From: Candidatus Hermodarchaeota archaeon
GTDB taxonomy: Archaea > Asgardarchaeota > Hermodarchaeia > Hermodarchaeales > Hermodarchaeaceae
DNA: 10,403 nt
NCBI GenBank assembly: GCA_016839365.1
Contig: JAEOUH010000030.1
Location: 1-10,403 of the forward strand
Direction of reading: 5' to 3'
Shown here: positions 1 to 10,403 of the stretch, piece by piece
Layout of the letters: the number at the start of each line of letters is the position of its first letter
Position numbering within the stretch: position 1 is the first letter of the stretch
Program-made: the position numbers and the translations under genes
The notes under the pieces: generated by a model
What the model was told of the DNA's origin: nothing
Seen by the model: the letters and a program-made list of their open reading frames with translations, nothing else
Database searches by the model: none

Positions 1-2
1 CG

Positions 3-1655
3 AAAATCGACGAGAAAAATCTTGAAATTATTTCCCGCATTGTACAGCAACTAGCTCAGCGACCCAAGGAAACTTTGAGTGATTCAGCACAACACCTTAT
101 GGAGAAAAGTCACAAACTCAACGAACAACTATATTTCCAAACCAAAGACACCCAGATTCGCGCCCAGCTCGCCCTGCAACTCTTGCTTTCAAAGGTCTCC
201 CCCGATCCTTCAGGTAAGGTGATCATGACCTTTCCTACCAAAGATTTGGACAAACTCGAAGATTATGCGACAACAGCAATGCTGGCCCAAGTCAAAGGTC
301 GACAACAAGTAAAAGCCTTGAAAGCGGGATCATTGCTGGTCTGGATTCTTTTACAACACTTAAGTGAAGTCACAGAGAGCAGAGAGATGCAAAAACTGAG
401 AGATGATGCACGAGAGTTTGCAGAACAGACTTTCACGTTTATGCCACCATCAAACGAGTTGACCAGCGAATCGTTCCCCTTTGCCTTCCTCTTACTCCGC
501 AATGTTAACGCCTTAGCCTACGAAGAGCACCCCGCTGAGGAGACGCAATGGGAACAGCTGCTAACACAAAGTGAACAACTCGCCCAAACTCTAGCCAAAG
601 CTGCAGCGGTAAAAGGCGACACGCGAAACGAGATTCTAGCCCTAAGTGCTGCAGGAACTGCCACAGCCAAACTTGCCACGCTTACCGCCGACCGCAGTTC
701 ACAAACCCGTTTGCTCCGAAGAGCAGCTACCCAGTTACAAAAAGCGCTCAAAGTTGTGACCAGCGACAGGGATTCTACAGATATTGAGGCTGTTTTGTCT
801 GAATATACTCAGCTCATGCGTGCCCGCTTATCAGTAACCCCAGCCCTCTCTGCACAAATTCCGATATTTAAAGATTGGAGTCAAACGTATAAGGATGGGA
901 TTAATGCTCTCCAAAGTAGAGATGCTGAAGATGCCGCGAATAGGCTACAAGCCTCACTGATACTCAACGTGGAGGTCCCGCTCACCTTCACACTTCTTAG
1001 TGAAGGTAAAGCAAGCCTTGATTCGGTTCGACGCCAACTGACAGATATGCTCCGTGAAGCCAGTCAAATCGGATTTAAGGACCAAGCAGAGTTAGCACAA
1101 CGGCTAGAACGGCGTTGGGCCTTCCAATTAGGTGATGACTCATTATTAGATGCAGGATATCGCCTCGAAGATGGTGAGACTGGATTCACGTTAGCTGATG
1201 AGCATTTTCGGATCAGTCTTCAGGTTGAGCTTGAGGTAGCGATCGACGGTCATGTATTACAAAAAATTGAAACCTTTCCGTATCTTCGTCCCTCAACCAA
1301 GACCACCGATTTGGTCTGGTACGACATGACTCCCATATTGTCAAGTACTTATGAAGGTGACCAGCTTCAGACATGGCTTACCCTTCTTAACCCTAGCGAA
1401 AACAGTGTTTCCATTGGGTTTTGGCTAGTACCCTCCAAGAACACCACGGCTAATATTACTTTACAGATTCTAGGCACCGAAGCTATGTCTCAAAGTGCAG
1501 AGGGGGTCATGATACAGCTTACTGGCTCTCAGTTGGAAATACCGCGACAACCATCAGTTGCTGAACGACGGGATACGAGGGGAATTCTGATCTACGAGCC
1601 GAAACTCACAGCAGGATTTCCTGATATCATTCGATTGAATTTACGAATTGCTTAG
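3..1655 (+). CDS. Large hypothetical protein, 5'-truncated by the window edge; helical (TPR/solenoid-like) N-terminal part and beta-rich C-terminal domain
   Basis: The frame of the 75..1655 ORF is open back to base 3 (KIDEKNLEIISRIVQQLAQRPKET-LSDSAQ...), so the TTG at 75 is probably not the true start. The N-terminal ~350 aa is L/A/Q/E-rich amphipathic helix. The last ~170 aa shows alternating hydrophobic beta-strand patterns. Ends at TAG 1653-1655. Confidence 0.85.
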   Translation, partial: KIDEKNLEIISRIVQQLAQRPKETLSDSAQHLMEKSHKLNEQLYFQTKDTQIRAQLALQLLLSKVSPDPSGKVIMTFPTKDLDKLEDYATTAMLAQVKGRQQVKALKAGSLLVWILLQHLSEVTESREMQKLRDDAREFAEQTFTFMPPSNELTSESFPFAFLLLRNVNALAYEEHPAEETQWEQLLTQSEQLAQTLAKAAAVKGDTRNEILALSAAGTATAKLATLTADRSSQTRLLRRAATQLQKALKVVTSDRDSTDIEAVLSEYTQLMRARLSVTPALSAQIPIFKDWSQTYKDGINALQSRDAEDAANRLQASLILNVEVPLTFTLLSEGKASLDSVRRQLTDMLREASQIGFKDQAELAQRLERRWAFQLGDDSLLDAGYRLEDGETGFTLADEHFRISLQVELEVAIDGHVLQKIETFPYLRPSTKTTDLVWYDMTPILSSTYEGDQLQTWLTLLNPSENSVSIGFWLVPSKNTTANITLQILGTEAMSQSAEGVMIQLTGSQLEIPRQPSVAERRDTRGILIYEPKLTAGFPDIIRLNLRIA

Positions 1656-1664
1656 CATCAATAG

Positions 1665-1669
1665 TTTTT
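1665..1669 (+). terminator. Possible archaeal oligo-T terminator for the upstream + strand gene
   Basis: TTTTT 10 nt after the stop codon, in a 12-nt convergent spacer. Confidence 0.3.
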
Positions 1670-2288
1670 AGAGCCCAAGTGGTAGACCCCAGAGAACCCA
1701 ATAGACCACTGCTGTTACAAGAATAGCAATAAGGATTCCAGCCAGCAGCTGCGATAGTGAATGCAGTTTTAGCTTCCAGCGAGCCCATGCCACAAGAACT
1801 GCTAAGAGCATGAAGGGTAGGAAAAAGAGACCATACACCCAAATCAATCCAGTAATCGGTCCAGCGACACCCGCGCTATGCGCTGAAACTTTCCAATAAA
1901 GACTCACAAGGCCAATTACTGATGTCACTCCAGCGTACGCGATTGCAATGACAGCCAAAGCATGATTGTGGAAAATCCAGGCAATTAGTGCCCCACTAAA
2001 ATAGATGATGATAGCAGCCAGATAAAGTAGGGGTCGGTCACGACGATTTTTTACATCGAATGTCATTTTTCCGCGCGCAACCATTAACGCGACTGGAAGG
2101 ATGGGACCGATGACGACAAAGATGATTCCAATGATGAAAGATTGCCACGGTTGTATTAACCCGGTTCCAATAGGCGAATAGAAAGCCAAAACAGTAACTG
2201 CGCCCATGGCAATTAGGGGCGGTGATAGAAGATTTGAGAGTACTCGAGCTATGCGGATAGAAATTATTGAATTGTCTAGCTGAGTCAT
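1668..2288 (-). CDS. PAP2/acid-phosphatase superfamily integral membrane protein (divergent motifs)
   Basis: About 6-7 hydrophobic helices. Motifs KNRRDRP (C1-like), KVSAH (C2-like) and ARWKLKLHSLSQ (C3-like SRxxxxxHxxxD/Q). AGGTGAT SD at 2292-2298. Confidence 0.75.
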   Translation of the reverse strand: MTQLDNSIISIRIARVLSNLLSPPLIAMGAVTVLAFYSPIGTGLIQPWQSFIIGIIFVVIGPILPVALMVARGKMTFDVKNRRDRPLLYLAAIIIYFSGALIAWIFHNHALAVIAIAYAGVTSVIGLVSLYWKVSAHSAGVAGPITGLIWVYGLFFLPFMLLAVLVAWARWKLKLHSLSQLLAGILIAILVTAVVYWVLWGLPLGL

Positions 2289-2291
2289 TGC

Positions 2292-2298
2292 ATCACCT
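2292..2298 (-). promoter_or_regulatory. Shine-Dalgarno site (AGGTGAT) of the PAP2-like gene
   Basis: Minus strand reads aAGGTGATgcaATG. Confidence 0.65.
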
Positions 2299-2318
2299 TT
2301 GGAATAGAGCGCATAGCT

Positions 2319-4106
2319 TTAGAGATTCAATTGTTTGAGACAGGATTTCGTTGGTTGACCAGTCTTATCCCATCCACGAAGGCGATAATATTCAGGAAGC
2401 ATCTCCTCAAGATGGGAAACTCGGTTACGAGATCCTCCTTCAGGTAATGGGGTGGAGAAACGTGGAGGGAGGCAGTCATCTTTCGCTGAAAAACCTTCTC
2501 GAATATTGAATAACCGTTCGAGAGTCCAGATTCTCTCGCCAATTTTAAGGAACTCTTTACCAGATATTGTGAGCGAGGTGGCAGCTGAGAGTAGATCAGC
2601 ATAATCTTCCACGCTAAAAGCGAAGGTGGTAAATCGGCATAGAACAAGCGAATCCATTGCCGCGGAGAGATTTTGAAACAGAATCACAAGTCCGGCCTTT
2701 CCCTCAACACGATCGCGATCGACAAGGACGGGTGATCCCAATATCTCAGGTCCTATAAGATAGGCCCGTAAATGGCACCCTCCCCGGTTGGAGGTGGCAT
2801 AAGCTAGAGCGTGTCCTTGAACCCCCCTGGGATCGTAAGCAGGCATTTCTAATCCCTTCACCTGCATTGCTAGTTGGGGTGCGTTATACCGGGTAGCTAA
2901 AGCTTTGGAACCTTGTCCAAGTTCCTTTCCCAATCCACGAACATGGGCTATATCATCGATGAGGTTGAGCAACTCTGCAGTTTTTCCAAATTCATGTGTA
3001 GATTGGAGGTAGCCTTTCTGCATAAGCTCCATCGCACATCCAATGGTGCTGCCTACTGAAATCGTGTCTAGACCTAGCTCATTACACCGATGATTAGCAG
3101 TGGTAATCCATTCGAGATTATTGATTCCACACTGAGGTCCTAAAGCCCAAATAGTCTCATACTCAGGGCCACCTACTTCAGTTCCTTGAACTTGAGAGAT
3201 TCTGCCACAGCCAATTGGACAACCGAAGCAATGGTACCGCTTGGTGAAGAACCGTTCAAGCAGCTTCTCTCCAGAAACGCCTTCGGCATCGTTAAAGGTT
3301 CCCTCTTGGAAGTTGTATGTTGGTAGCATCCCGTATTCATTAATGAGGTTGACTAGCACTGCGGTCCCATATACGGGTAAAGAATTGTTCGTGATAGAAT
3401 CTTTCTTGATAAGGCGACGTGTGCGGTTAACGACGAGATCGAGTTTTTCAGGATCATTTATTGAGATTTGTTTTGTGCCATGAATTACGATGGCCTTCAG
3501 ATGCTTTGCACCCATGACGGCCCCCACACCACCACGACCTGCAGCGCGATGCTTGTCATTCATGATTGCGGCAAGGCTGACCCGATTTTCTCCCCCAGGA
3601 CCGATGCATGCCACTTGGGCTTTGGCATTAGTTTCATCAAGAAGATAATCGGTGGAGGAACTTACCTCTTGACCCCAGACATCCTTCGCTGACCGAAATT
3701 CAACGTCTCCGTCATTAATCCAGAGATAAGTTGGTGATTTTGCACGCCCTTGGAGAACCAAAGCAGCATAGCCCGCCCGGCGGAGCTGTGGACCAAAGTG
3801 TCCTCCACAGTTGGAGTCAAAAATCGTACCAGTTAATGGTGATTTGGTGATTACGGCGACCCGCCCTCCCGTTGGTGCAGATGATGCTGTAAGGGGACCA
3901 ATGGCAAACACCAGAAGATTTTCAGGGGCTAGCGGAGAAATGGCGGGGATTACTTGATCATAGACTAGTTTTACGCCTAGACCACGACCACCTAGATAGT
4001 AGGTAAAAAGCTCAGGTGTGAGTTCTTGTTGTTTCACCGTTTGGTTAGTAAGTGAAATTCGAAGCAGTTTTGTGTCAGAATAGGATTGACTGACCTCATC
4101 TGTCAT
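2319..4106 (-). CDS. aor: Tungsten-containing aldehyde:ferredoxin oxidoreductase (AOR family)
   Basis: 595 aa with AOR-family motifs: YLGGRGLG, KSPLTG...SNCGG, RAAGRGGVGAVMGAKHLKAI, [4Fe-4S] ligands CFGCPIGC plus DSLVLC, pterin-binding GPEYET and LGLDTIS, YDPRG..G.ALAYATSNRGGCH, GERIWTLERLFNIREG, YYRLRGWD..G.P. Confidence 0.96.
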   Translation of the reverse strand: MTDEVSQSYSDTKLLRISLTNQTVKQQELTPELFTYYLGGRGLGVKLVYDQVIPAISPLAPENLLVFAIGPLTASSAPTGGRVAVITKSPLTGTIFDSNCGGHFGPQLRRAGYAALVLQGRAKSPTYLWINDGDVEFRSAKDVWGQEVSSSTDYLLDETNAKAQVACIGPGGENRVSLAAIMNDKHRAAGRGGVGAVMGAKHLKAIVIHGTKQISINDPEKLDLVVNRTRRLIKKDSITNNSLPVYGTAVLVNLINEYGMLPTYNFQEGTFNDAEGVSGEKLLERFFTKRYHCFGCPIGCGRISQVQGTEVGGPEYETIWALGPQCGINNLEWITTANHRCNELGLDTISVGSTIGCAMELMQKGYLQSTHEFGKTAELLNLIDDIAHVRGLGKELGQGSKALATRYNAPQLAMQVKGLEMPAYDPRGVQGHALAYATSNRGGCHLRAYLIGPEILGSPVLVDRDRVEGKAGLVILFQNLSAAMDSLVLCRFTTFAFSVEDYADLLSAATSLTISGKEFLKIGERIWTLERLFNIREGFSAKDDCLPPRFSTPLPEGGSRNRVSHLEEMLPEYYRLRGWDKTGQPTKSCLKQLNL

Positions 4107-4112
4107 TTGATT

Positions 4113-4120
4113 CTCCTCCT
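4113..4120 (-). promoter_or_regulatory. Shine-Dalgarno site (AGGAGGAG) of aor, overlapping the deoC stop codon
   Basis: Minus strand reads gatTAGGAGGAGaatcaaATG, consistent with translational coupling of deoC and aor. Confidence 0.8.
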
Positions 4121-4940
4121 AATCATTGAAGACGTTTTGGTCACGGTGGGGACAGGTAACGCAGCGTTGTTTGTACCAAAGATACACTTCTTTGGGTTGT
4201 TTCCCCAAGCTAGCCTGCCGACTTGGACAAGTCCAACAGGGTTTGTCAGGCTCAAGGAAGGTGTCACTGTATCCTGCCCAACGGAACCCTTCGACGATGG
4301 CAACGCCTGAGCTTGTGCCAAGGCGATTTGCACCAGCATCGATCATTCGCAATGCATCCTTGAAGCTGCGGATGCCACCTGCAGCTTTTACTCCCATATC
4401 CGGTCCTACCGTTTCACGCATCAGACGCACATCATACGGTGTTGCACCCATAGGTCCAAATCCAGTGGACGTTTTGACAAAGTGCGCACCAGCATCTTTG
4501 CAGATAAGACAAGCCTTCTGTTTCTCCTCATCAATTAGAAACCCTGTTTCAAGAATCACTTTCACTATCGCATCATCAGCGGCACTAACCACCGCCTTGA
4601 TATCAGATTGAACCAAATCATAGTTCTTGTCTTTTAGAGCACCTATGTTAATGACCATATCAACCTCGGTAGCGCCTTTTTGCACAGCCTGCTTTGTCTC
4701 AAAGGCTTTTACCTCCGAAAGGGTGGCACCCAAGGGAAAGCCAACAACCACACACACATCTACCGATGAGTTCTTCAATAAGTCGATGGCATATTCAACG
4801 TGAACGGGATTGATGCACACCGTAGCAAACTCGTAAGCTAGGGCTTCTTCACATAGTTCTAAAATCTTTGCCCGTTTAGTTTCTGGCTTGAGTCGTGTAT
4901 GATCAATGAATTTGACAAGCTCTTCTACGGTCAATGACAT
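4119..4940 (-). CDS. deoC: 2-deoxyribose-5-phosphate aldolase (DERA) with a Cys4 C-terminal extension
   Basis: [39 protein letters not shown], Schiff-base Lys in [16 protein letters not shown] and phosphate-binding RLGTSSG. A further 56 aa follow the core and contain CWTCP and CVTCP. Confidence 0.96.
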
Positions 4941-5086
4941 CGTGAATACCTCCTTTGGTTCTCATTTGTGCCCTCATTAAGGATAAACTTGTTTCTTCAT
5001 GAAAATGATGGGATTCCAAAGAACTTCTGCTGCCTGAATAAAGCTTATCTAATTCATTGGGCGAATTCGTGAGTAGGTGCCTGACC
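4941..5086. promoter_or_regulatory. Divergent promoter region between deoC-aor-PAP2 and the M42 peptidase gene
   Basis: 146-nt non-coding gap between head-to-head genes. TATA-like candidates: minus TTTATCC (4982-4988) after purine-rich GAAACAAG; minus TTTATTC (5036-5042); plus CTTATCTA (5044-5051) after ATAAAG. Which boxes are functional cannot be determined from sequence. Confidence 0.55.
4948..4954 (-). promoter_or_regulatory. Shine-Dalgarno site (AGGAGGT) of deoC
   Basis: Minus strand reads aaAGGAGGTattcacgATG. Confidence 0.8.
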
Positions 5087-6175
5087 ATGGATTCAAGACG
5101 AATTAAACTATTACAAACACTGGTGGACTCATTTGGTCCTAGTGGCTTTGAACGCGAAACTAGCGCTCTGGTCGCTGAAGCCATGCGCCCGATTGCCGAT
5201 GAAATCACCATCGACAAACTCGGAAGTGTACAGTTCATCAAAAAGGGGAGCGCTGATAAACCCCGAATCCTTTTCGCTGGTCATGTTGATGAGGTAGGCT
5301 TCATCGTCTCAGGGATTACCAAGGACGGATTTCTTAAGGTCAATCCATTAGGAGGATGGTGGAGTCAAGTTGTATTGGCACAAAAAGTCATTGTGCGAAC
5401 ACGAAAAAATGACCGCTACTTTGGTGTCTTTGGTGCTAAACCGCCTCACATCCTCAAGCCAGATGAACGAAAGAAAGTCGTTGAACTTGATGAGATGTTT
5501 ATCGATGTTGGCGCAAGCTCTGAAGATGATATCAAGGAAATGGGTATCCAAGTTGGCGACCCAATTGTGCCTGATTCCTCGTTTCAACTCATTCGCGATG
5601 ACAGATTAGCGGCAGCCAAAGCTTTTGATGACCGCCTTGGTGCATTTATTGCCATGGAAGTAATCTACCAATTGAAGACTGAAAAGATCGACCATCCAAA
5701 TACTGTAATTGGAGCAGCAACCGTTCAAGAGGAAGTCGGTCTTCGAGGAGCTCGAACCACCGCACATCTCATTCAGCCAGATGTTGGGTTTGCCCTAGAG
5801 GTGGACCTGGCCGGTGATATGCCTGGTATCAAACCCGAACAAGCTGCAACAAAATTAGGCAAAGGACCGGCGATTTGTACAATGGACCGATCAATGATAC
5901 CCAACCAACCACTACTCAACTTCGTTATTCAGACTGCGAAGAAAGAAAAAATTCCCTATCAACTTTCTCAGATGTATGGCGGTGGTACGGATGCAGGTGT
6001 AATCCACATCGATCGGACCGGGTGTCCCAGCCTGGTTATTGGTGTACCGACCCGACACATCCACAGTCATGTTGGCATCCTCAACCTAGATGACGTCGAG
6101 AAGACAATTGATCTTCTTGTCGCTGTGGTAAAAGGACTAGACAAGAAGGTAGTGAAAAGCTTCACAGACCTATAA
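5087..6175 (+). CDS. M42 family metallo-aminopeptidase (TET / FrvX-like)
   Basis: GPSGFE, AGHVDEVG, PLGGW, MFIDVGA, GIQVGD, KAFDDR, VQEEVGLRGA, GGGTDAG, VPTRHIHS. Start placed at ATG 5087 (AGGTG SD at 5075-5079) rather than TTG 5057. Confidence 0.95.
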   Translation: MDSRRIKLLQTLVDSFGPSGFERETSALVAEAMRPIADEITIDKLGSVQFIKKGSADKPRILFAGHVDEVGFIVSGITKDGFLKVNPLGGWWSQVVLAQKVIVRTRKNDRYFGVFGAKPPHILKPDERKKVVELDEMFIDVGASSEDDIKEMGIQVGDPIVPDSSFQLIRDDRLAAAKAFDDRLGAFIAMEVIYQLKTEKIDHPNTVIGAATVQEEVGLRGARTTAHLIQPDVGFALEVDLAGDMPGIKPEQAATKLGKGPAICTMDRSMIPNQPLLNFVIQTAKKEKIPYQLSQMYGGGTDAGVIHIDRTGCPSLVIGVPTRHIHSHVGILNLDDVEKTIDLLVAVVKGLDKKVVKSFTDL

Positions 6176-6212
6176 GACGAAACGTTGAGTAGGTGATGGG
6201 AGCAATCGGAGT

Positions 6213-6917
6213 ATGGCTCTTGAGCTGGTGGTTTTCGACCTCGATGGAACCTTAGTGACCGCTGAAATTAACTTTCGGGCGATGCGCCGTGCCATTCGAG
6301 ATTTATTACTCGAACACGGCTTCCCAGTTGAAGTGCTTCCAATGAACAGTACTCAAGATTTACTCAGAAGTGCCTTTGCTTATGCTGGGAAGCAAGGGAA
6401 ATCACCTGTTGAAATTAGCGAACTGCGTGATAAAGTCTACGCTGCAGCCGTTGAATATGAATGGGAAGGAGCGAAGAATGCCCAACTTGTGCCAGGAGCC
6501 AAAGAGACACTCCAAGCCCTTCAAGACCATGATATCAGGACAGCAATTCTTACTAACGATAACGGTGAAGTGGCCAAGTATCTTCTGGAAAAATTCAAGT
6601 TATCAAAATTAATTGATCTCCTGATATCGCGTGATGATGCCCCGCACATGAAGCCCTCCACTTCGGGTTTGGAACTCATTCTGCGTCAGTTCAATGCAAC
6701 TCCCACAAGTACGCTCTTCATTGGGGACTCGACAATAGACATCATGACGGCGAAAAAACTGGGTATCCCAGTTATCGCTCGCCAGTCGAAACTTCGGACA
6801 GAAGATGAACTCCTTACCGAGGGAGCTCTTGTTGTCTTTCCAACCCTGACCCCGATTATCCCCTATCTTCAGGAGCAGAAAATGCTGTTACCCAGAAGGA
6901 TGAAAACAAAAGGCTGA
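6213..6917 (+). CDS. HAD-superfamily hydrolase, C1 cap (phosphoglycolate phosphatase / nucleotidase-like; substrate unknown)
   Basis: Motif I FDLDGT, motif II ILTND, motif III MKPS, motif IV IGDSTID, with a helical cap between motifs I and II. Confidence 0.92.
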   Translation: MALELVVFDLDGTLVTAEINFRAMRRAIRDLLLEHGFPVEVLPMNSTQDLLRSAFAYAGKQGKSPVEISELRDKVYAAAVEYEWEGAKNAQLVPGAKETLQALQDHDIRTAILTNDNGEVAKYLLEKFKLSKLIDLLISRDDAPHMKPSTSGLELILRQFNATPTSTLFIGDSTIDIMTAKKLGIPVIARQSKLRTEDELLTEGALVVFPTLTPIIPYLQEQKMLLPRRMKTKG

Positions 6918-6971
6918 TATTCGCAGATCTATTCTAGATTGTGTATTGTATCAATTGTGTGTGGATCTTGA

Positions 6972-8630
6972 GTGAAAACGGATTTTAAGCTCGACCAACT
7001 GCTTGCAAACGGCGAAACCCGAAACACCGAATTTAAGCGCATGCTAGCTTCAAAAGATGGAGTAGGAGACCGTCGAGCGAAGCTTATTGCACAATTGAAA
7101 TTAATAACAAGCGAGGGGCCTGGTCAATTCGTGGTGGGAATTGAAGACATCCACGGTAAAAATTGGGAAGTCTATGGACTTACCGCTGAGGAAGTTGAAA
7201 ATAGCAAGACAGTTCTCAAAAAGCTCTGTAAAGAAGCAGGTATTGACATTTTAGAACAAACCCACTACAGCACAGACAAAGGGATTGTGGCCAGTTTCAC
7301 GGTGGCCCGAGTTATCACCCCCATGGTTCCTGAAACCGTGGGTATGAACTTAGTGGGCCGTGTCAACAGTGGAAAGACGACCCTTGCAGGAGTGCTCATT
7401 CAAGGCCAACTAGATAATGGAAGTGGGCAAGCAAGAGCTTTACTTTTGACTTATCCTCAAGAGCTGAAACGTGGTCAGACCGCGGACTTACATGTCGCTT
7501 TTGCCGCTATCAACAGGCAGGGTAAATTTATGGCAATGCAGGCACCACTAGACAAATCAAAACGGGCACGAATCCTCGATCAGGCCCATCGAATCATCAC
7601 CATCTTTGACGCTCCCGGCCACAAAGAATACGCCAAGACCATGATTCGGAGCGTCCTGGGAGCCTCTGCCCAATACAGCATGATTCTCGTGCCCTGCTTG
7701 GATGAATATAAACTCTCAGTAGCTGAAGTACAACGGAGCGGGATCCGCCGCCTCGATGACATTACTCGCGAACATCTGTTGCTGGTTTCCAACCAAGAAC
7801 TCCCGTTTGTGGTTGTCATCAACAAAGTCGACGATTGTGATGAACATCGACGAGACCATGTGCGAAACCTCGTTTTCGAAACCATTAAAGAAATCGGACA
7901 CGTACCGCTTCGCATTACCTCCGAAGATGATATCCCTATCATTTGCCGAGAAATCGCCCACCGAGTAATTGTCCCAGTATATGAAGTCAGCTGCGTCACG
8001 GGGGAAGGATTGGACCTCCTCCGAGAAACACTTGTTCAACTCCCCTCGCGCATACCTGATGAAAGGATAGAAAAACCTGCCTTCGCATATATCGACAAGG
8101 TATACAGGGGGATCCGGGGAACCAACATCGTCATCACGGGCACAGTCCAAGAGGGAATATTCAAACCAGGCCAATCCATTCTTACTGGTCCTGATAAAGA
8201 CGGCAGATTCATGCAGGGGAGGATAGGATCAATTGAAGTCTTTAAAAAGCGGGTGGAACGTGTGAAGGCAGGAGATGTCTTCGGATTTGATTTAAAGCGT
8301 CTCCCACCCGAAAAGATCCGTCGGGGCCAGATAATTTGCGACAAAGATGCAGACGTAAAAGCCGTCAACACCTTCGAATCCACCATTATTGTGACACGCC
8401 ACCCCACTCGCATTCGTCAAGGATATGAACCGGTGTTCCATTCTGCAACCATCCAACAGCCAGTAATTTATGAGCATATCTTTAACAAAGAGTACCTTGT
8501 TGTCGGCGATGTGGCCCGCGTTCGGATGGTATTCAAAAAAGGTCCTGAAATGCTTCGTATAGGAGATCGAATTGTAACACGCGAGGCTAACACCCGTTGT
8601 ATTGGTACAGTCACAAAACTGGTTCACTAA
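6972..8630 (+). CDS. GTPBP1/GTPBP2-like (archaeal GPBP) translational GTPase of the EF-Tu/SelB superfamily with an N-terminal AlbA_2/Schlafen-like domain
   Basis: N-domain GETRNTEFK...QLK...EGPG.FVVGIED..YGL resembles the GTPBP1/2 N-terminus. G1 GRVNSGKTT, LDNGSGQAR, G2 ELKRGQTAD, G3 DAPGH, TREH, G4 NKVD, G5 SCVTGEG. Domain II (IDKVY..IRGT..V.GTV) and domain III (HPTRIRQGYEPVFH) are present. GTG start. Confidence 0.9.
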   Translation: MKTDFKLDQLLANGETRNTEFKRMLASKDGVGDRRAKLIAQLKLITSEGPGQFVVGIEDIHGKNWEVYGLTAEEVENSKTVLKKLCKEAGIDILEQTHYSTDKGIVASFTVARVITPMVPETVGMNLVGRVNSGKTTLAGVLIQGQLDNGSGQARALLLTYPQELKRGQTADLHVAFAAINRQGKFMAMQAPLDKSKRARILDQAHRIITIFDAPGHKEYAKTMIRSVLGASAQYSMILVPCLDEYKLSVAEVQRSGIRRLDDITREHLLLVSNQELPFVVVINKVDDCDEHRRDHVRNLVFETIKEIGHVPLRITSEDDIPIICREIAHRVIVPVYEVSCVTGEGLDLLRETLVQLPSRIPDERIEKPAFAYIDKVYRGIRGTNIVITGTVQEGIFKPGQSILTGPDKDGRFMQGRIGSIEVFKKRVERVKAGDVFGFDLKRLPPEKIRRGQIICDKDADVKAVNTFESTIIVTRHPTRIRQGYEPVFHSATIQQPVIYEHIFNKEYLVVGDVARVRMVFKKGPEMLRIGDRIVTREANTRCIGTVTKLVH

Positions 8631-8631
8631 T

Positions 8632-8639
8632 CAAAAAAG
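8632..8639 (-). terminator. Possible oligo-T terminator for the minus-strand wHTH/membrane-protein transcript
   Basis: Minus strand CTTTTTTG about 10 nt after the stop at 8649, in an 18-nt convergent spacer. Confidence 0.35.
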
Positions 8640-8648
8640 AACCACTGG

Positions 8649-9266
8649 TTACAACTCAGCGAAGGCGCGAGCTAGTTGTGTGATTTTAAAATGAAGTTCA
8701 TCTACTGATGAGACGGTGGCAAGTGTATTTGCATCAAATGCCAACAGATAGCGTTGGGAAACAGAGTCCAATTCGGAAGGAGATGCTTGGGGAAATGTGG
8801 CTCGTAATACAACAAGCCCATACTCACCAGAACCAGTTGTTTTTGGTAAGAGTTTTGTAACTAGCAAACCTTTGGAGTTGATCTGTGTAAGGTATTGCCG
8901 GCGTAAGCGAAGCTTAGTGGTTGAACCGATGCGGTGTAATTCCAATTGGATTGTTTGATCGACTCGTGAAGGAATCCAAATGGCAAAGTAGATTGTCACA
9001 CTAATTGTGAGAATTAGGGCAATTGTGGTAGCTGTGGTCGCTGTCCAGATGACAGGATGCTGCATTGCTAGCATGAACCATTCCCACCAAGTCTGTTCGG
9101 GTGTCGGTGTCCAGGGTGGTCCCAAAGTGGGAAGCATGAGCAGGCGTGTCGTTAAGATTCCAGCGCAGGTTATGCTGATTATCCATAAGACACCTAAAAA
9201 GATCCATTCGATGATGTATTGCTCTCTTACCATTCCGGTGAGTAGCTGTTCACTCCTCTCGTTCAA
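8649..9266 (-). CDS. Hypothetical membrane protein (two TM helices plus a soluble C-terminal domain)
   Basis: TM1 around WIFLGVLWIISITCAGIL; Pro/Trp/Thr-rich loop; TM2 around IALILTISVTIYFAIWI; then about 100 aa soluble. The start is uncertain. TTG 9266 (GGAGG at 9279-9283) is preferred; ATG 9233 or 9320 are alternatives. Confidence 0.7.
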   Translation of the reverse strand: MNERSEQLLTGMVREQYIIEWIFLGVLWIISITCAGILTTRLLMLPTLGPPWTPTPEQTWWEWFMLAMQHPVIWTATTATTIALILTISVTIYFAIWIPSRVDQTIQLELHRIGSTTKLRLRRQYLTQINSKGLLVTKLLPKTTGSGEYGLVVLRATFPQASPSELDSVSQRYLLAFDANTLATVSSVDELHFKITQLARAFAEL

Positions 9267-9582
9267 CGGCTGTTCCGTCCTCCAATGCTTTGATATATAA
9301 TTCCATAGTCTCCTTTCCATGCAGCTCAATGAGTTCTAGTAAGTAGGCAATTAAGGGTTGGAGATGGTTGACCCGGATTGAGTGCAAGCGTGGCGTTAAT
9401 CGATCGACCAGAATAAGCTCTTCTTGCTCAAGGCGTTCAAGTGGTCCACGGTACAAAGACTTCGCTTTACCACTGTAACCAATCAATGTGATGAGCTGGG
9501 TACCCGACGCAGCTCGTGGATATATATGAGCAAGGGAAATGAGGATACGCCGCTGGATTTCACTGAGTGAAAGAAGGGACAT
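9250..9582 (-). CDS. Winged helix-turn-helix protein (putative transcriptional regulator)
   Basis: LSEIQRRILISL-AHIYP-ASGTQLITLIG-KSLYRGPLERLEQEELILV-wing follows the wHTH helix/helix/helix/wing pattern. ATG 9582 is preferred over GTG 9648 because the extra 22 codons do not look like part of the domain. Confidence 0.7.
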   Translation of the reverse strand: MSLLSLSEIQRRILISLAHIYPRAASGTQLITLIGYSGKAKSLYRGPLERLEQEELILVDRLTPRLHSIRVNHLQPLIAYLLELIELHGKETMELYIKALEDGTAVEREE

Positions 9583-9810
9583 TATCAGATCGTAGGTATC
9601 TTTTCCACGGTTTTCAGTCACGCCAAACCCAGCCAGTGAGAGGTTCACAAATAACGTATGAATTTAAATGCCACGTCTAGGACTCACTCCTGCTTCTTAT
9701 GAGTTTTTATCCACGTCTTCTATTCACATCACTGATTTCCCCTAAAGCCCTACAATAATCGTTTAAATTTGTAAATTGTTAGTTGAATAATTGTATGTAC
9801 GTATTTGTAT

Positions 9811-9826
9811 CGCAAAGTATATATTA
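9811..9826 (+). promoter_or_regulatory. Candidate archaeal BRE + TATA box for the ArsR-like gene
   Basis: CGCAAAG-TATATATTA in an AT-rich stretch about 60 nt upstream of ATG 9883. Confidence 0.5.
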
Positions 9827-9882
9827 AAGAGCGTAAAATAAATGTCCTCTGCCTTGCTGGAGAATTCTGGACGGTAAGAATC

Positions 9883-10122
9883 ATGACCCCCATCACTGAG
9901 AAAGTTTTACGCCATCGAACTCGTCGTCAAATCCTTCAAACCCTTAATGGGCAACGAACGTTCTTGCGAGATATCGCACGAGCTTTAGATATTCCCCCCA
10001 GTACAGCCGCCTATCACCTGAAACGGTTGCTTTCGGCTGGTCTTGTCGAGCAACGTCGAGGAGTATATCATTCCTTCTATTTCCTGACGGAGCACGGCGA
10101 ACGTATAGCTGCAGAATTTTAG
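9883..10122 (+). CDS. ArsR/SmtB-like winged-helix transcriptional regulator (79 aa)
   Basis: LRHRTRRQILQTL...LRDIARALDIPPSTAAYHLKRLLSAGLVE...YFLTEHG is a typical ArsR-type HTH. ATG 9883 is preferred because the longer TTG 9805 version runs through the TATA region. Confidence 0.88.
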   Translation: MTPITEKVLRHRTRRQILQTLNGQRTFLRDIARALDIPPSTAAYHLKRLLSAGLVEQRRGVYHSFYFLTEHGERIAAEF

Positions 10123-10208
10123 AACAAGTACTCTCTCGTTCGCATTTGAAACTCAGCTGGGCTAACAGCCATTAAGACAGATGAGAAAAGAGAGAAGTAA
10201 ATTATCAC

Positions 10209-10403
10209 CTACATAAGCAAGGATTGGGCTTTGGCTGTTGTTGTCCAAGTTGGCTGGTCATGAATTTCTGCTTTTTTGAGTAGTTCCTTGACTTCCAGCT
10301 CCTTCAAGATGGAACGCAATTCATCCTCTTTCATCGGCTCCTTCCCAATGGGAACCCGTGTGCTATTAACACCTTGATAGATGCTGATGAATGATTGATG
10401 GCC
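10209..10403 (-). CDS. C-terminal part of a probable winged-helix protein (5' end outside the window; absent from the ORF track)
   Basis: Minus-strand frame is open from the window edge to TAG at 10209-10211: GHQSFISIYQGVNSTRVPIGKEPMKEDELRSILKELEVKELLKKAEIHDQPTWTTTAKAQSLLM*. The L..L..LE.KELL...W..T.KA pattern fits a wHTH recognition helix and wing. Confidence 0.65.
   Translation of the reverse strand, partial: GHQSFISIYQGVNSTRVPIGKEPMKEDELRSILKELEVKELLKKAEIHDQPTWTTTAKAQSLLM

Follow-up and report, generated by a model that had tools for sequence, protein, structure and literature searches.

A four-cysteine tail on an archaeal deoxyribose-5-phosphate aldolase and its linkage to one subtype of aldehyde:ferredoxin oxidoreductase

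The deoC-aor locus

The stretch of DNA analysed here, referred to below as the window, comprises 10,403 nucleotides (nt) of Candidatus Hermodarchaeota archaeon (assembly GCA_016839365.1, contig JAEOUH010000030.1, positions 1 to 10,403 of the forward strand). On its minus strand it carries a gene for DeoC, the deoxyribose-5-phosphate aldolase (DERA), in which the aldolase barrel is followed by a C-terminal tail of 56 amino acids (aa) containing four cysteines, and, directly downstream, a gene for an aldehyde:ferredoxin oxidoreductase (AOR). In the loci examined, the tail is never separated from this AOR subtype. The features of the pair are as follows.

4119-4940, minus strand: open reading frame (ORF) of 273 aa, DeoC/DERA
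4290..4940, minus strand: DeoC/DERA class I aldolase barrel, residues 1-217 (TIGR00126, PF01791 and the 5dbu_A alignment)
4122..4289, minus strand: 56-aa orphan C-terminal Cys4 tail, residues 218-273 (no family match; all tail homologues are DeoC; dN/dS 0.03-0.05)
4218..4241, minus strand: first knuckle P-C-W-T-C-P-S-R, residues 234-241, with C235 and C238 (conservation in 83 sequences)
4170..4196, minus strand: conserved aromatic helix P-K-E-V-Y-L-W-Y-K, residues 249-257 (conservation and predicted helix)
4152..4163, minus strand: second pair C-V-T-C, with C260 and C263 (both cysteines invariant)
4122..4136, minus strand: extreme C-terminus N-V-F-N-D (N269 invariant, F271 nearly invariant)
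4107..4121, minus strand: deoC TAG stop (4119-4121) that overlaps a GGAGG ribosome-binding site; the aor ATG follows after a 12-nt spacer (sequence reading)
2319..4106, minus strand: AOR subtype linked to tail-bearing deoC (PF02730, PF01314 and 1AOR)

The NCBIfam equivalog profile for deoC, TIGR00126, matches residues 8-216 (2.7e-88, 294.9 bits against a cut-off of 117.3), and the Pfam family PF01791 matches the same protein at 1.3e-15. Solved DERAs align to residues 8 to ~220, at up to 2.7e-78 for 5dbu_A, and then stop. Against the short-type enzymes (PDB 5DBU, 6D33, 3NGJ and 1MZH), the end-to-end alignment of residues 8-220 reaches 1e-50 to 1e-78; these solved forms terminate within a few residues of the last helix, whereas the DeoC of the window continues for 56 residues with the Cys4 domain. 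It can be observed that D94, K127 and K156, aligned with the solved DERAs, are invariant in 21 homologues, K156 being located in the motif F-V-K-T-S-T-G-F, and that the Schiff-base lysine and the proton-relay Asp and Lys characteristic of DeoC/DERA are retained. The ORF at 4119-4940 is identified from these features as a genuine DeoC/DERA, and the gene presumably encodes a complete, active deoxyribose-5-phosphate aldolase. Translation and the profile boundaries confirm the arrangement put forward in a preliminary description of this stretch, in which a Cys4 tail follows the barrel at residues 218-273, with its cysteines in the order C235-x2-C238-x21-C260-x2-C263 (nt 4152-4238).

The neighbouring product contains both domains of the AOR family, PF02730 at 1.4e-78 and PF01314 at 7e-143 (Pfam), and its closest solved structure is Pyrococcus 1AOR, with which it is colinear (1e-183). 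The four cysteines C293, C296, C300 and C490, assigned to the [4Fe-4S] cluster, are invariant and align with the C-x2-C-x3-C of 1AOR and its later Cys. The protein is identified as an aldehyde:ferredoxin oxidoreductase, its tungstopterin and its activity being assigned by family. The lack of a ferredoxin gene in the window, pointed out in the preliminary description, carries no weight, as the AOR keeps its own four [4Fe-4S] cysteines.

Nine AOR-family paralogues are present in the genome of the window (2.2 Mb). The other eight, located on G000 contigs C5, C16, C17, C19 (two), C49, C75 and C91, are 610-645 aa in length and at most 41% identical to the deoC-linked AOR; they have several extra loops and a longer C-terminus, the deoC-linked protein being shorter. 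The latter is the only one of the nine with same-genus orthologues of more than 75% identity (75-92%), each of which lies beside deoC; for all the other paralogues identity is at most 43%. No orthologue of it was found in the sister genus g2, in which DeoC lacks the tail (best match 37-41%), or in genome G323, which is 91% complete and has a tail-less DeoC (best match 39%). The partner of the tail is identified, by this comparison, as one specific AOR subtype, absent from the examined genomes with tail-less DeoC. Replacement by the tail of a segment missing from the AOR was considered and rejected, because the AOR, shorter than its eight paralogues, is colinear with 1AOR. As a separate observation, T336 of the AOR and a Leu in an L-L-N-L stretch near residue 380 align with Glu332 and His383 of 1AOR, which we take to be ligands of the inter-subunit mononuclear Fe; if they are, the metal-bridged dimer contact of the Pyrococcus type may be absent here.

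The close spacing of the two genes recurs among their relatives. Of 75 measured operons, 66 have a gap of 11-12 nt between deoC and aor and 74 a gap of 6-15 nt, and the TAG of deoC usually lies within TAGGAGG. The exception is L084, from a Cloacimonadota metagenome-assembled genome (MAG), with a 717-nt insertion between the genes. This insertion (L084:887-1603) has GC-rich palindromes on its flanks and an IS200/RAYT-like transposase read by eye, and both genes are intact. In L112, too, several hundred nt separate deoC from the aor start downstream. One metatranscriptome library yielded a 192-nt contig that matches window positions 4004-4195 identically, thereby spanning the aor start, the 12-nt spacer and the tail-coding end; it gives a weak hint of deoC/aor co-transcription, too little to claim it.

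Conservation, distribution and linkage of the tail

The four cysteines of the tail are invariant in three sets of distinct homologues, comprising 21, 83 and 76 sequences. Their conservation, on which the preliminary description had made its reading depend, is complete in the 83 aligned tails, across which P239-S240-R241, P249, Y256, K257 and N269 are also invariant and P234 (at least 90%), K250, V252, Y253 and F271 are nearly so. Around the second pair the flank is variable: the Pro is Glu in many sequences, and the following His and Arg vary. Bacterial tails terminate in N-[KR]-F-Y-[ED]. The first unit, P-C-x2-C-P-S-R, is the sole unit conserved as a motif, the second being conserved as CxxC only; the earlier wording of two CxTCPxR units requires correction in this respect, and an internal duplication of such a unit was rejected for the same reason. 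The tail is under strong purifying selection, the ratio of nonsynonymous to synonymous substitution rates (dN/dS) being 0.03-0.05 for the tail against 0.06 for the barrel in 21 unsaturated pairs. The sample consisted of 76 distinct genes of 273 codons, in all of which the four cysteines are kept. Moreover, contigs from two other studies, of marine sediment and soil metagenomes, cover window positions 3965-4940 and 3795-4904 with zero differences or indels, and the deoC/aor junction, the stop codon and the whole tail are located inside them. The concern that a lost stop codon or the assembly itself had created the tail, raised together with the first description, is removed, since the identical contigs come from two other studies.

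Searches with the tail returned DeoC throughout. A word-indexed search in which the tail alone was scored gave 58 proteins, all annotated or typed as DeoC and mostly 273 aa in length, and a tail profile search gave 272 proteins longer than 102 aa; among the matches listed (120 of 272), PF01791 is present in the full-length proteins (228-302 aa). When 1.84 billion cluster representatives were scanned exhaustively with HMMER, the matches were only DeoC-fused forms, short ORFs and spurious repeat proteins. The last of these (P0062, P0066, P0067 and P0068) are long, with scores inflated by repeats and without matching cysteines, and were rejected. Apparent stand-alone tails were likewise set aside, as P0061 and P0069-P0071 start inside the DeoC barrel and P0073 in its last helix; the readable short matches are contig-edge or mis-started DeoC fragments. 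P0064, P0065 and P0072 are tail-only ORFs, the first two on contigs of 532-676 nt with unread DNA, and no independent stand-alone tail gene was shown among the short matches of the exhaustive search. The tail is exclusive to DeoC. In a scan of one genome per species, 120 stretches encode it. By record title, the hosts are Thorarchaeota, Hermodarchaeota and 'Promethearchaeota' MAGs, together with a few bacteria (Cloacimonadota, MAGs labelled Armatimonadota and one deltaproteobacterial MAG); the nearest relatives of the window are Hermodarchaeota-like MAGs.

With respect to known families, no Pfam or NCBIfam match was obtained for the tail, a profile search of the PDB gave nothing below E 1.3, and a permissive Pfam scan of the 83 tails gave insignificant matches only. 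In the literature searched, there was no paper on the tail or on a DERA-AOR complex. On these grounds the tail is assigned to no described family, and the earlier remark that no described DeoC with such a tail is known holds for Pfam, NCBIfam, the PDB and the literature searched.

In AlphaFold2 models, the barrel is confident and the tail has a predicted local distance difference test score (pLDDT) of 60-70 in the full protein; modelled alone, the tail has a mean pLDDT of 63 and short helices. The longest of its predicted helices, residues 250-261 with a pLDDT of about 70-79, ends at C260. A Foldseek comparison of the tail with the PDB gave nothing below E 7.8, and in the ESM Atlas there was no usable feature match for the tail, all structural TM scores being below 0.5. 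The tail has two CxxC knuckles within the 15-30 residue separation of zinc ribbons and rubredoxins; the hairpin knuckle or family match of that fold was not found, the model being helical and of low confidence. The spacing of Fe-S motifs (CxxCxxCxxxCP, endonuclease III FCL, WhiB) is not present either, the tail having only two CxxC pairs 21 residues apart, and Fer4, ferredoxin and rubredoxin profiles gave no match to it. The analogy to endonuclease III FCL and WhiB made in the preliminary description is consequently not sustained, nor is one to ferredoxin motifs. Paired CxxC motifs with 21 residues between them are typical of single-metal Cys4 sites, and the tail probably binds one metal ion, structural Zn being most likely on prior expectation.

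Linkage to aor was analysed across genomes. An AOR gene is located immediately downstream in 78 of the 78 tail-bearing loci with enough downstream DNA. The control set consisted of 20 Asgard DeoCs with open frames too short for the tail, four of them from the window's own family, and none has an AOR within 4 kb. Among bacterial relatives, AOR follows all nine tail-bearing deoC genes and 0 of 63 tail-less ones. When 162 distinct DeoC loci with at least 700 nt of downstream DNA were pooled, the 80 tail-bearing loci were the 80 AOR-adjacent ones and the 82 tail-less loci were without AOR, with no discordant row. The co-occurrence of tail and adjacent aor, a check suggested along with the preliminary description, is thus found in 80/80 tail-bearing against 0/82 tail-less loci.

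At one orthologous locus in Thorarchaeota, the gene lies between a Hef-type helicase/nuclease and a PUA-PAPS-reductase gene. The order is Hef ... deoC-tail, aor, PUA in about 49 loci and Hef ... deoC (no tail), PUA in nine, and the flanking proteins are 61-66% identical between examples of both states. Because only these two states occur, the tail extension and aor are present or absent as one contiguous block. This block also has other surroundings: in the genus of the window it adjoins genes for an M42 peptidase and a PAP2-like protein, and in bacteria its neighbours differ again. The pair is retained in at least three neighbourhoods and across the divide between archaea and bacteria. One tail-less Thorarchaeota DeoC, in L099 (G323:C37, deoC at 3968-4669), ends in ...I-E-D-F-R-Q-S-R-Q-N-E-S-N-S. 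The E-D-F-R start seen typically in tail-bearing relatives is retained, and the PUA-PAPS-reductase gene comes immediately after this deoC. L099 may represent a deletion of tail and aor, the direction of which is not settled by the tree.

The weight of this association depends on phylogeny. Under a site-heterogeneous model, no more than two changes of the tail label are required on the DeoC-barrel tree, and when all tail-bearing barrels are kept in one clade the log-likelihood lies 8.2 units above that of the free quick search (p-AU, the p-value of the approximately unbiased test, 0.675). These results are compatible with tail-bearing DeoC having arisen once, been inherited vertically and entered bacteria as a whole cassette. 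Two placements by FastTree, that of the bacterial tail-bearing barrels apart from the archaeal ones and the nesting of tail-less L099 among tail-bearing genes, were not reproduced under the site-heterogeneous model. Because they are not robust, we claim neither that the domain moved from one DeoC lineage to another nor that a secondary loss in G323 is proven. The evidence is therefore a failure to decouple over a long, broad radiation, which spans several contexts, inter-domain transfer and mobile insertions, rather than repeated correlated change.

Proposed role of the tail and competing explanations

DERA yields acetaldehyde and glyceraldehyde-3-phosphate, and 1AOR-type AORs use ferredoxin in oxidising aldehydes. 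Because these established chemistries share the aldehyde, the two enzymes would act consecutively, and DeoC and AOR probably work as a pair. At the gene level, the layout expected of channelling partners is observed, namely adjacent genes arranged for co-translation and a shared aldehyde, with a 12-nt gap and the stop codon inside the ribosome-binding site. In the proposed process, DeoC would split deoxyribose-5-phosphate into glyceraldehyde-3-phosphate and acetaldehyde, and the AOR, whose reading frame begins 12 nt further along the shared message, would convert acetaldehyde to acetate with reduction of ferredoxin. The tail would hold DeoC on the AOR subtype, and the volatile, toxic and DERA-inactivating acetaldehyde would pass directly to the AOR without escape. 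Aldehydes inactivate DERA, and acetaldehyde inhibits it (PMC8403123), and aldolase/aldehyde-dehydrogenase pairs are known to channel their aldehyde (PMC12041015, section 44).

We give an even chance to the reading that the tail is a metal-stabilised adaptor, probably with Zn, coupling DERA to the AOR subtype for acetaldehyde hand-over; beyond the linkage itself, we infer that the tail binds a metal, which metal this is, that the two proteins dock physically and that channelling takes place. In a further-reaching form, tentative and at somewhat under even chances, the Cys4 tail would be a dedicated docking domain, not described before, that builds a complex of DERA and tungsten AOR, the first aldolase-tungstoenzyme channelling machine, in which deoxyribose is converted to acetate and reduced ferredoxin without free acetaldehyde; across Asgard archaea the cassette would have remained whole, and it would have moved from one domain to another. 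An even stronger form would have DeoC active, or the tail metallated, only when bound to AOR. Regarding the geometry of the tail, the C-terminal Tyr of E. coli DERA enters the active site (PMC8403123), many tail-less DeoC relatives end in Tyr, and the N-x-F end of the tail is conserved; for these reasons, by analogy, the Cys4 module may have been inserted into a functional C-terminal arm.

Several points weigh against the coupling of DeoC to AOR through the tail. Metabolic coupling of the two genes does not require contact between tail and AOR, and the AOR, colinear with 1AOR, lacks nothing that would need complementation by the tail. No DeoC-AOR fusion, which would have given Rosetta-stone support, was present among the tail-profile matches listed. 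In evolutionary terms the association comes down to about one gain, a single tail-bearing clade being unrejected (p-AU 0.675), and because only one or two phylogenetically independent contrasts are available, no statistical test of the association is possible; shared ancestry alone could yield the pattern of 80/80 against 0/82. The tail, furthermore, is modelled only at pLDDT 60-79, with short helices and without the classical zinc-ribbon hairpin, and no fold or profile relative in Pfam, NCBIfam, the PDB, Foldseek or the Atlas independently supports metal binding. A complex prediction from alignments of AOR and tail with Zn, run without controls, scored 0.02 against a mark of 0.32 and weighs neither way on binding.

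In the most probable alternative, the tail is a structural module intrinsic to DeoC, such as a Zn-stabilised cap or oligomerisation element, without AOR contact, and it co-occurs with aor only because tail and operon originated in one ancestor. A single origin is compatible with the tree, the tail is never found apart from DeoC, and small Cys4 stabilising modules occur in many archaeal enzymes. Against this, no decoupling is seen in 80 distinct operons in two domains and several neighbourhoods, even with insertions between the genes; tail-less sister DeoCs persist well, and the constraint on the tail is as strong as that on the active-site barrel. We consider this explanation unlikely, though worth keeping in mind.

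The two invariant CxxC pairs could alternatively serve as a redox or oxygen switch, in which Zn(Cys)4 or a dithiol/disulfide changes the activity of DeoC or its association with AOR under oxidation, and DeoC would stop acetaldehyde output when the oxygen-sensitive AOR is inactive. The partner does belong to an oxygen-labile enzyme family, as is established for tungsten AORs, and the conserved N-x-F end would suit control at the active site that the C-terminal Tyr of E. coli DERA enters (PMC8403123). However, profile searches revealed no relative among known Zn redox switches, Pfam and NCBIfam revealed no thioredoxin-like partner in the window, and the proposal is entirely inferential; we regard it as improbable.

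A redox-active Fe centre, either rubredoxin-like Fe(Cys)4 or Fe-S, is slightly more doubtful still. It would take electrons from the [4Fe-4S] cluster of AOR, with DeoC doubling as an electron-carrier subunit. The spacing CxxC-x21-CxxC resembles the paired knuckles of rubredoxin type, the hosts are anaerobes rich in Fe-S proteins, and DeoCs of Oscillospiraceae and Clostridia bear a ferredoxin-like CxxCxxCxxxCP tail. But the glycines after the Cys of rubredoxin knuckles are absent, the predicted structure is helical, and the tail matches no ferredoxin, rubredoxin or Fer4 profile. A redox centre on a non-redox aldolase would, moreover, need a further acceptor, and the AOR keeps its own cluster and is colinear with the ferredoxin-using 1AOR. 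Finally, an artefact, be it through loss of a stop codon, through a frameshift or because a non-coding stretch upstream of aor had been translated, to which only the first impression that DeoC usually ends near residue 220 speaks, has practically no probability left and is excluded by the identical independent contigs, the 272 homologues, the invariant cysteines and a dN/dS of 0.03-0.05.

Related systems, other genes and biological meaning

The nearest functional analogues of the proposed DERA-AOR coupling are DmpG-DmpF and HsaF-HsaG (PDB 1NVM and 4JN6), where an aldolase releasing a short aldehyde is likewise encoded beside an aldehyde-oxidising enzyme. In these complexes the aldehyde is channelled and the aldolase is inactive alone (PMC12041015, section 44). 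Neither the folds nor the chemistry are related: DmpFG/HsaFG combine a class II metal aldolase with an NAD/CoA-dependent dehydrogenase, whereas the pair of the window combines a class I aldolase with a tungstopterin/[4Fe-4S] AOR. Furthermore, DmpFG/HsaFG form known complexes, with no dedicated docking domain described, whereas for the window pair a complex is proposed. On the AOR side, the window protein shares colinearity and the cluster cysteines with 1AOR and its relatives (9MQX, 9G7J, 8C0Z). We know of no aldolase partner of 1AOR-type AORs.

A looser analogue is the DERA of sugar-phosphate-utilisation microcompartments and of A-domain encapsulin operons (PMC8346489), enclosed there together with the partners that consume its aldehyde; these are further ways of placing DERA beside protein machinery. 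DeoC genes occur in bacterial microcompartment (BMC) loci in Clostridia and one Asgard family, and in Thermococcales they adjoin A-domain encapsulins; neither shell nor encapsulin genes were found near tail-bearing deoC in the window and the related loci examined. The Asgard case is L106:2968-4401 on the minus strand (G067:C1), from another family of the same phylum, in which the 477-aa ORF containing DeoC has about 255 additional aa at its N-terminus, without a Pfam family. Its neighbours, up to L106:7476, are a tandem BMC-domain shell protein (PF00936, 3e-42), RpiB and a PduS-like RnfC_N/SLBB/Fer4 protein; by its gene content the locus resembles one for a sugar-phosphate-utilisation microcompartment, here within an Asgard genome. 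In that genus, open frames of 480-490 aa are found repeatedly. In Oscillospiraceae and Clostridia, DeoCs of 249-256 aa (L137, L162-L165, L169, L175 and L177) have a C-terminal C-x2-C-x2-C-x3-C-P motif with a weak Fer4_10 match, a ferredoxin-like pattern unlike the Cys4 tail of the window, and no AOR lies within 3.5 kb of them. In L169:3387-4217 on the plus strand, the sole locus examined, such a DeoC is located in a BMC locus that also encodes a shell protein, another DeoC-like protein and one that is PduS-like.

Small Cys4 zinc modules with CxxC-x(17-25)-CxxC, for instance that at the N-terminus of prepilin peptidase A24 (PF06750), share the spacing of their two CxxC pairs with the tail. PF06750 was matched weakly in 10 of the 83 tails (best E 0.03, insignificant); there is no fold match, and the tail is predicted to be helical rather than a hairpin.

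Three further genes were recorded in the window.

6972-8630, plus strand: EF-1alpha/SelB-like GTPase of 552 aa with an N-terminal extension of about 120 aa (profile scores)
3-1655, plus strand: large ORF, open at the window start and 1024 aa in related loci (no Pfam or NCBIfam match)
8649-9329, minus strand: ORF of 226 aa (no Pfam or NCBIfam match)

The GTPase scores far below the curated cut-offs (125 against 502 bits for EF-1alpha, and likewise for SelB) and is conserved at the same position in related MAGs.

The tail is an orphan fold in at least 120 species-level genomes and could define a new domain family. As an enzyme without cofactor DERA belongs to the textbooks, and industry uses it as a biocatalyst; its chief weakness is that acetaldehyde inactivates it. 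A DERA lineage that has gained a probable metal-binding domain, and is always accompanied by one particular tungstoenzyme for acetaldehyde oxidation, points to a natural solution to this weakness. It also suggests an energy-yielding route in Asgard archaea of sediments, by which environmental DNA and deoxynucleosides would be converted to acetate and reduced ferredoxin.

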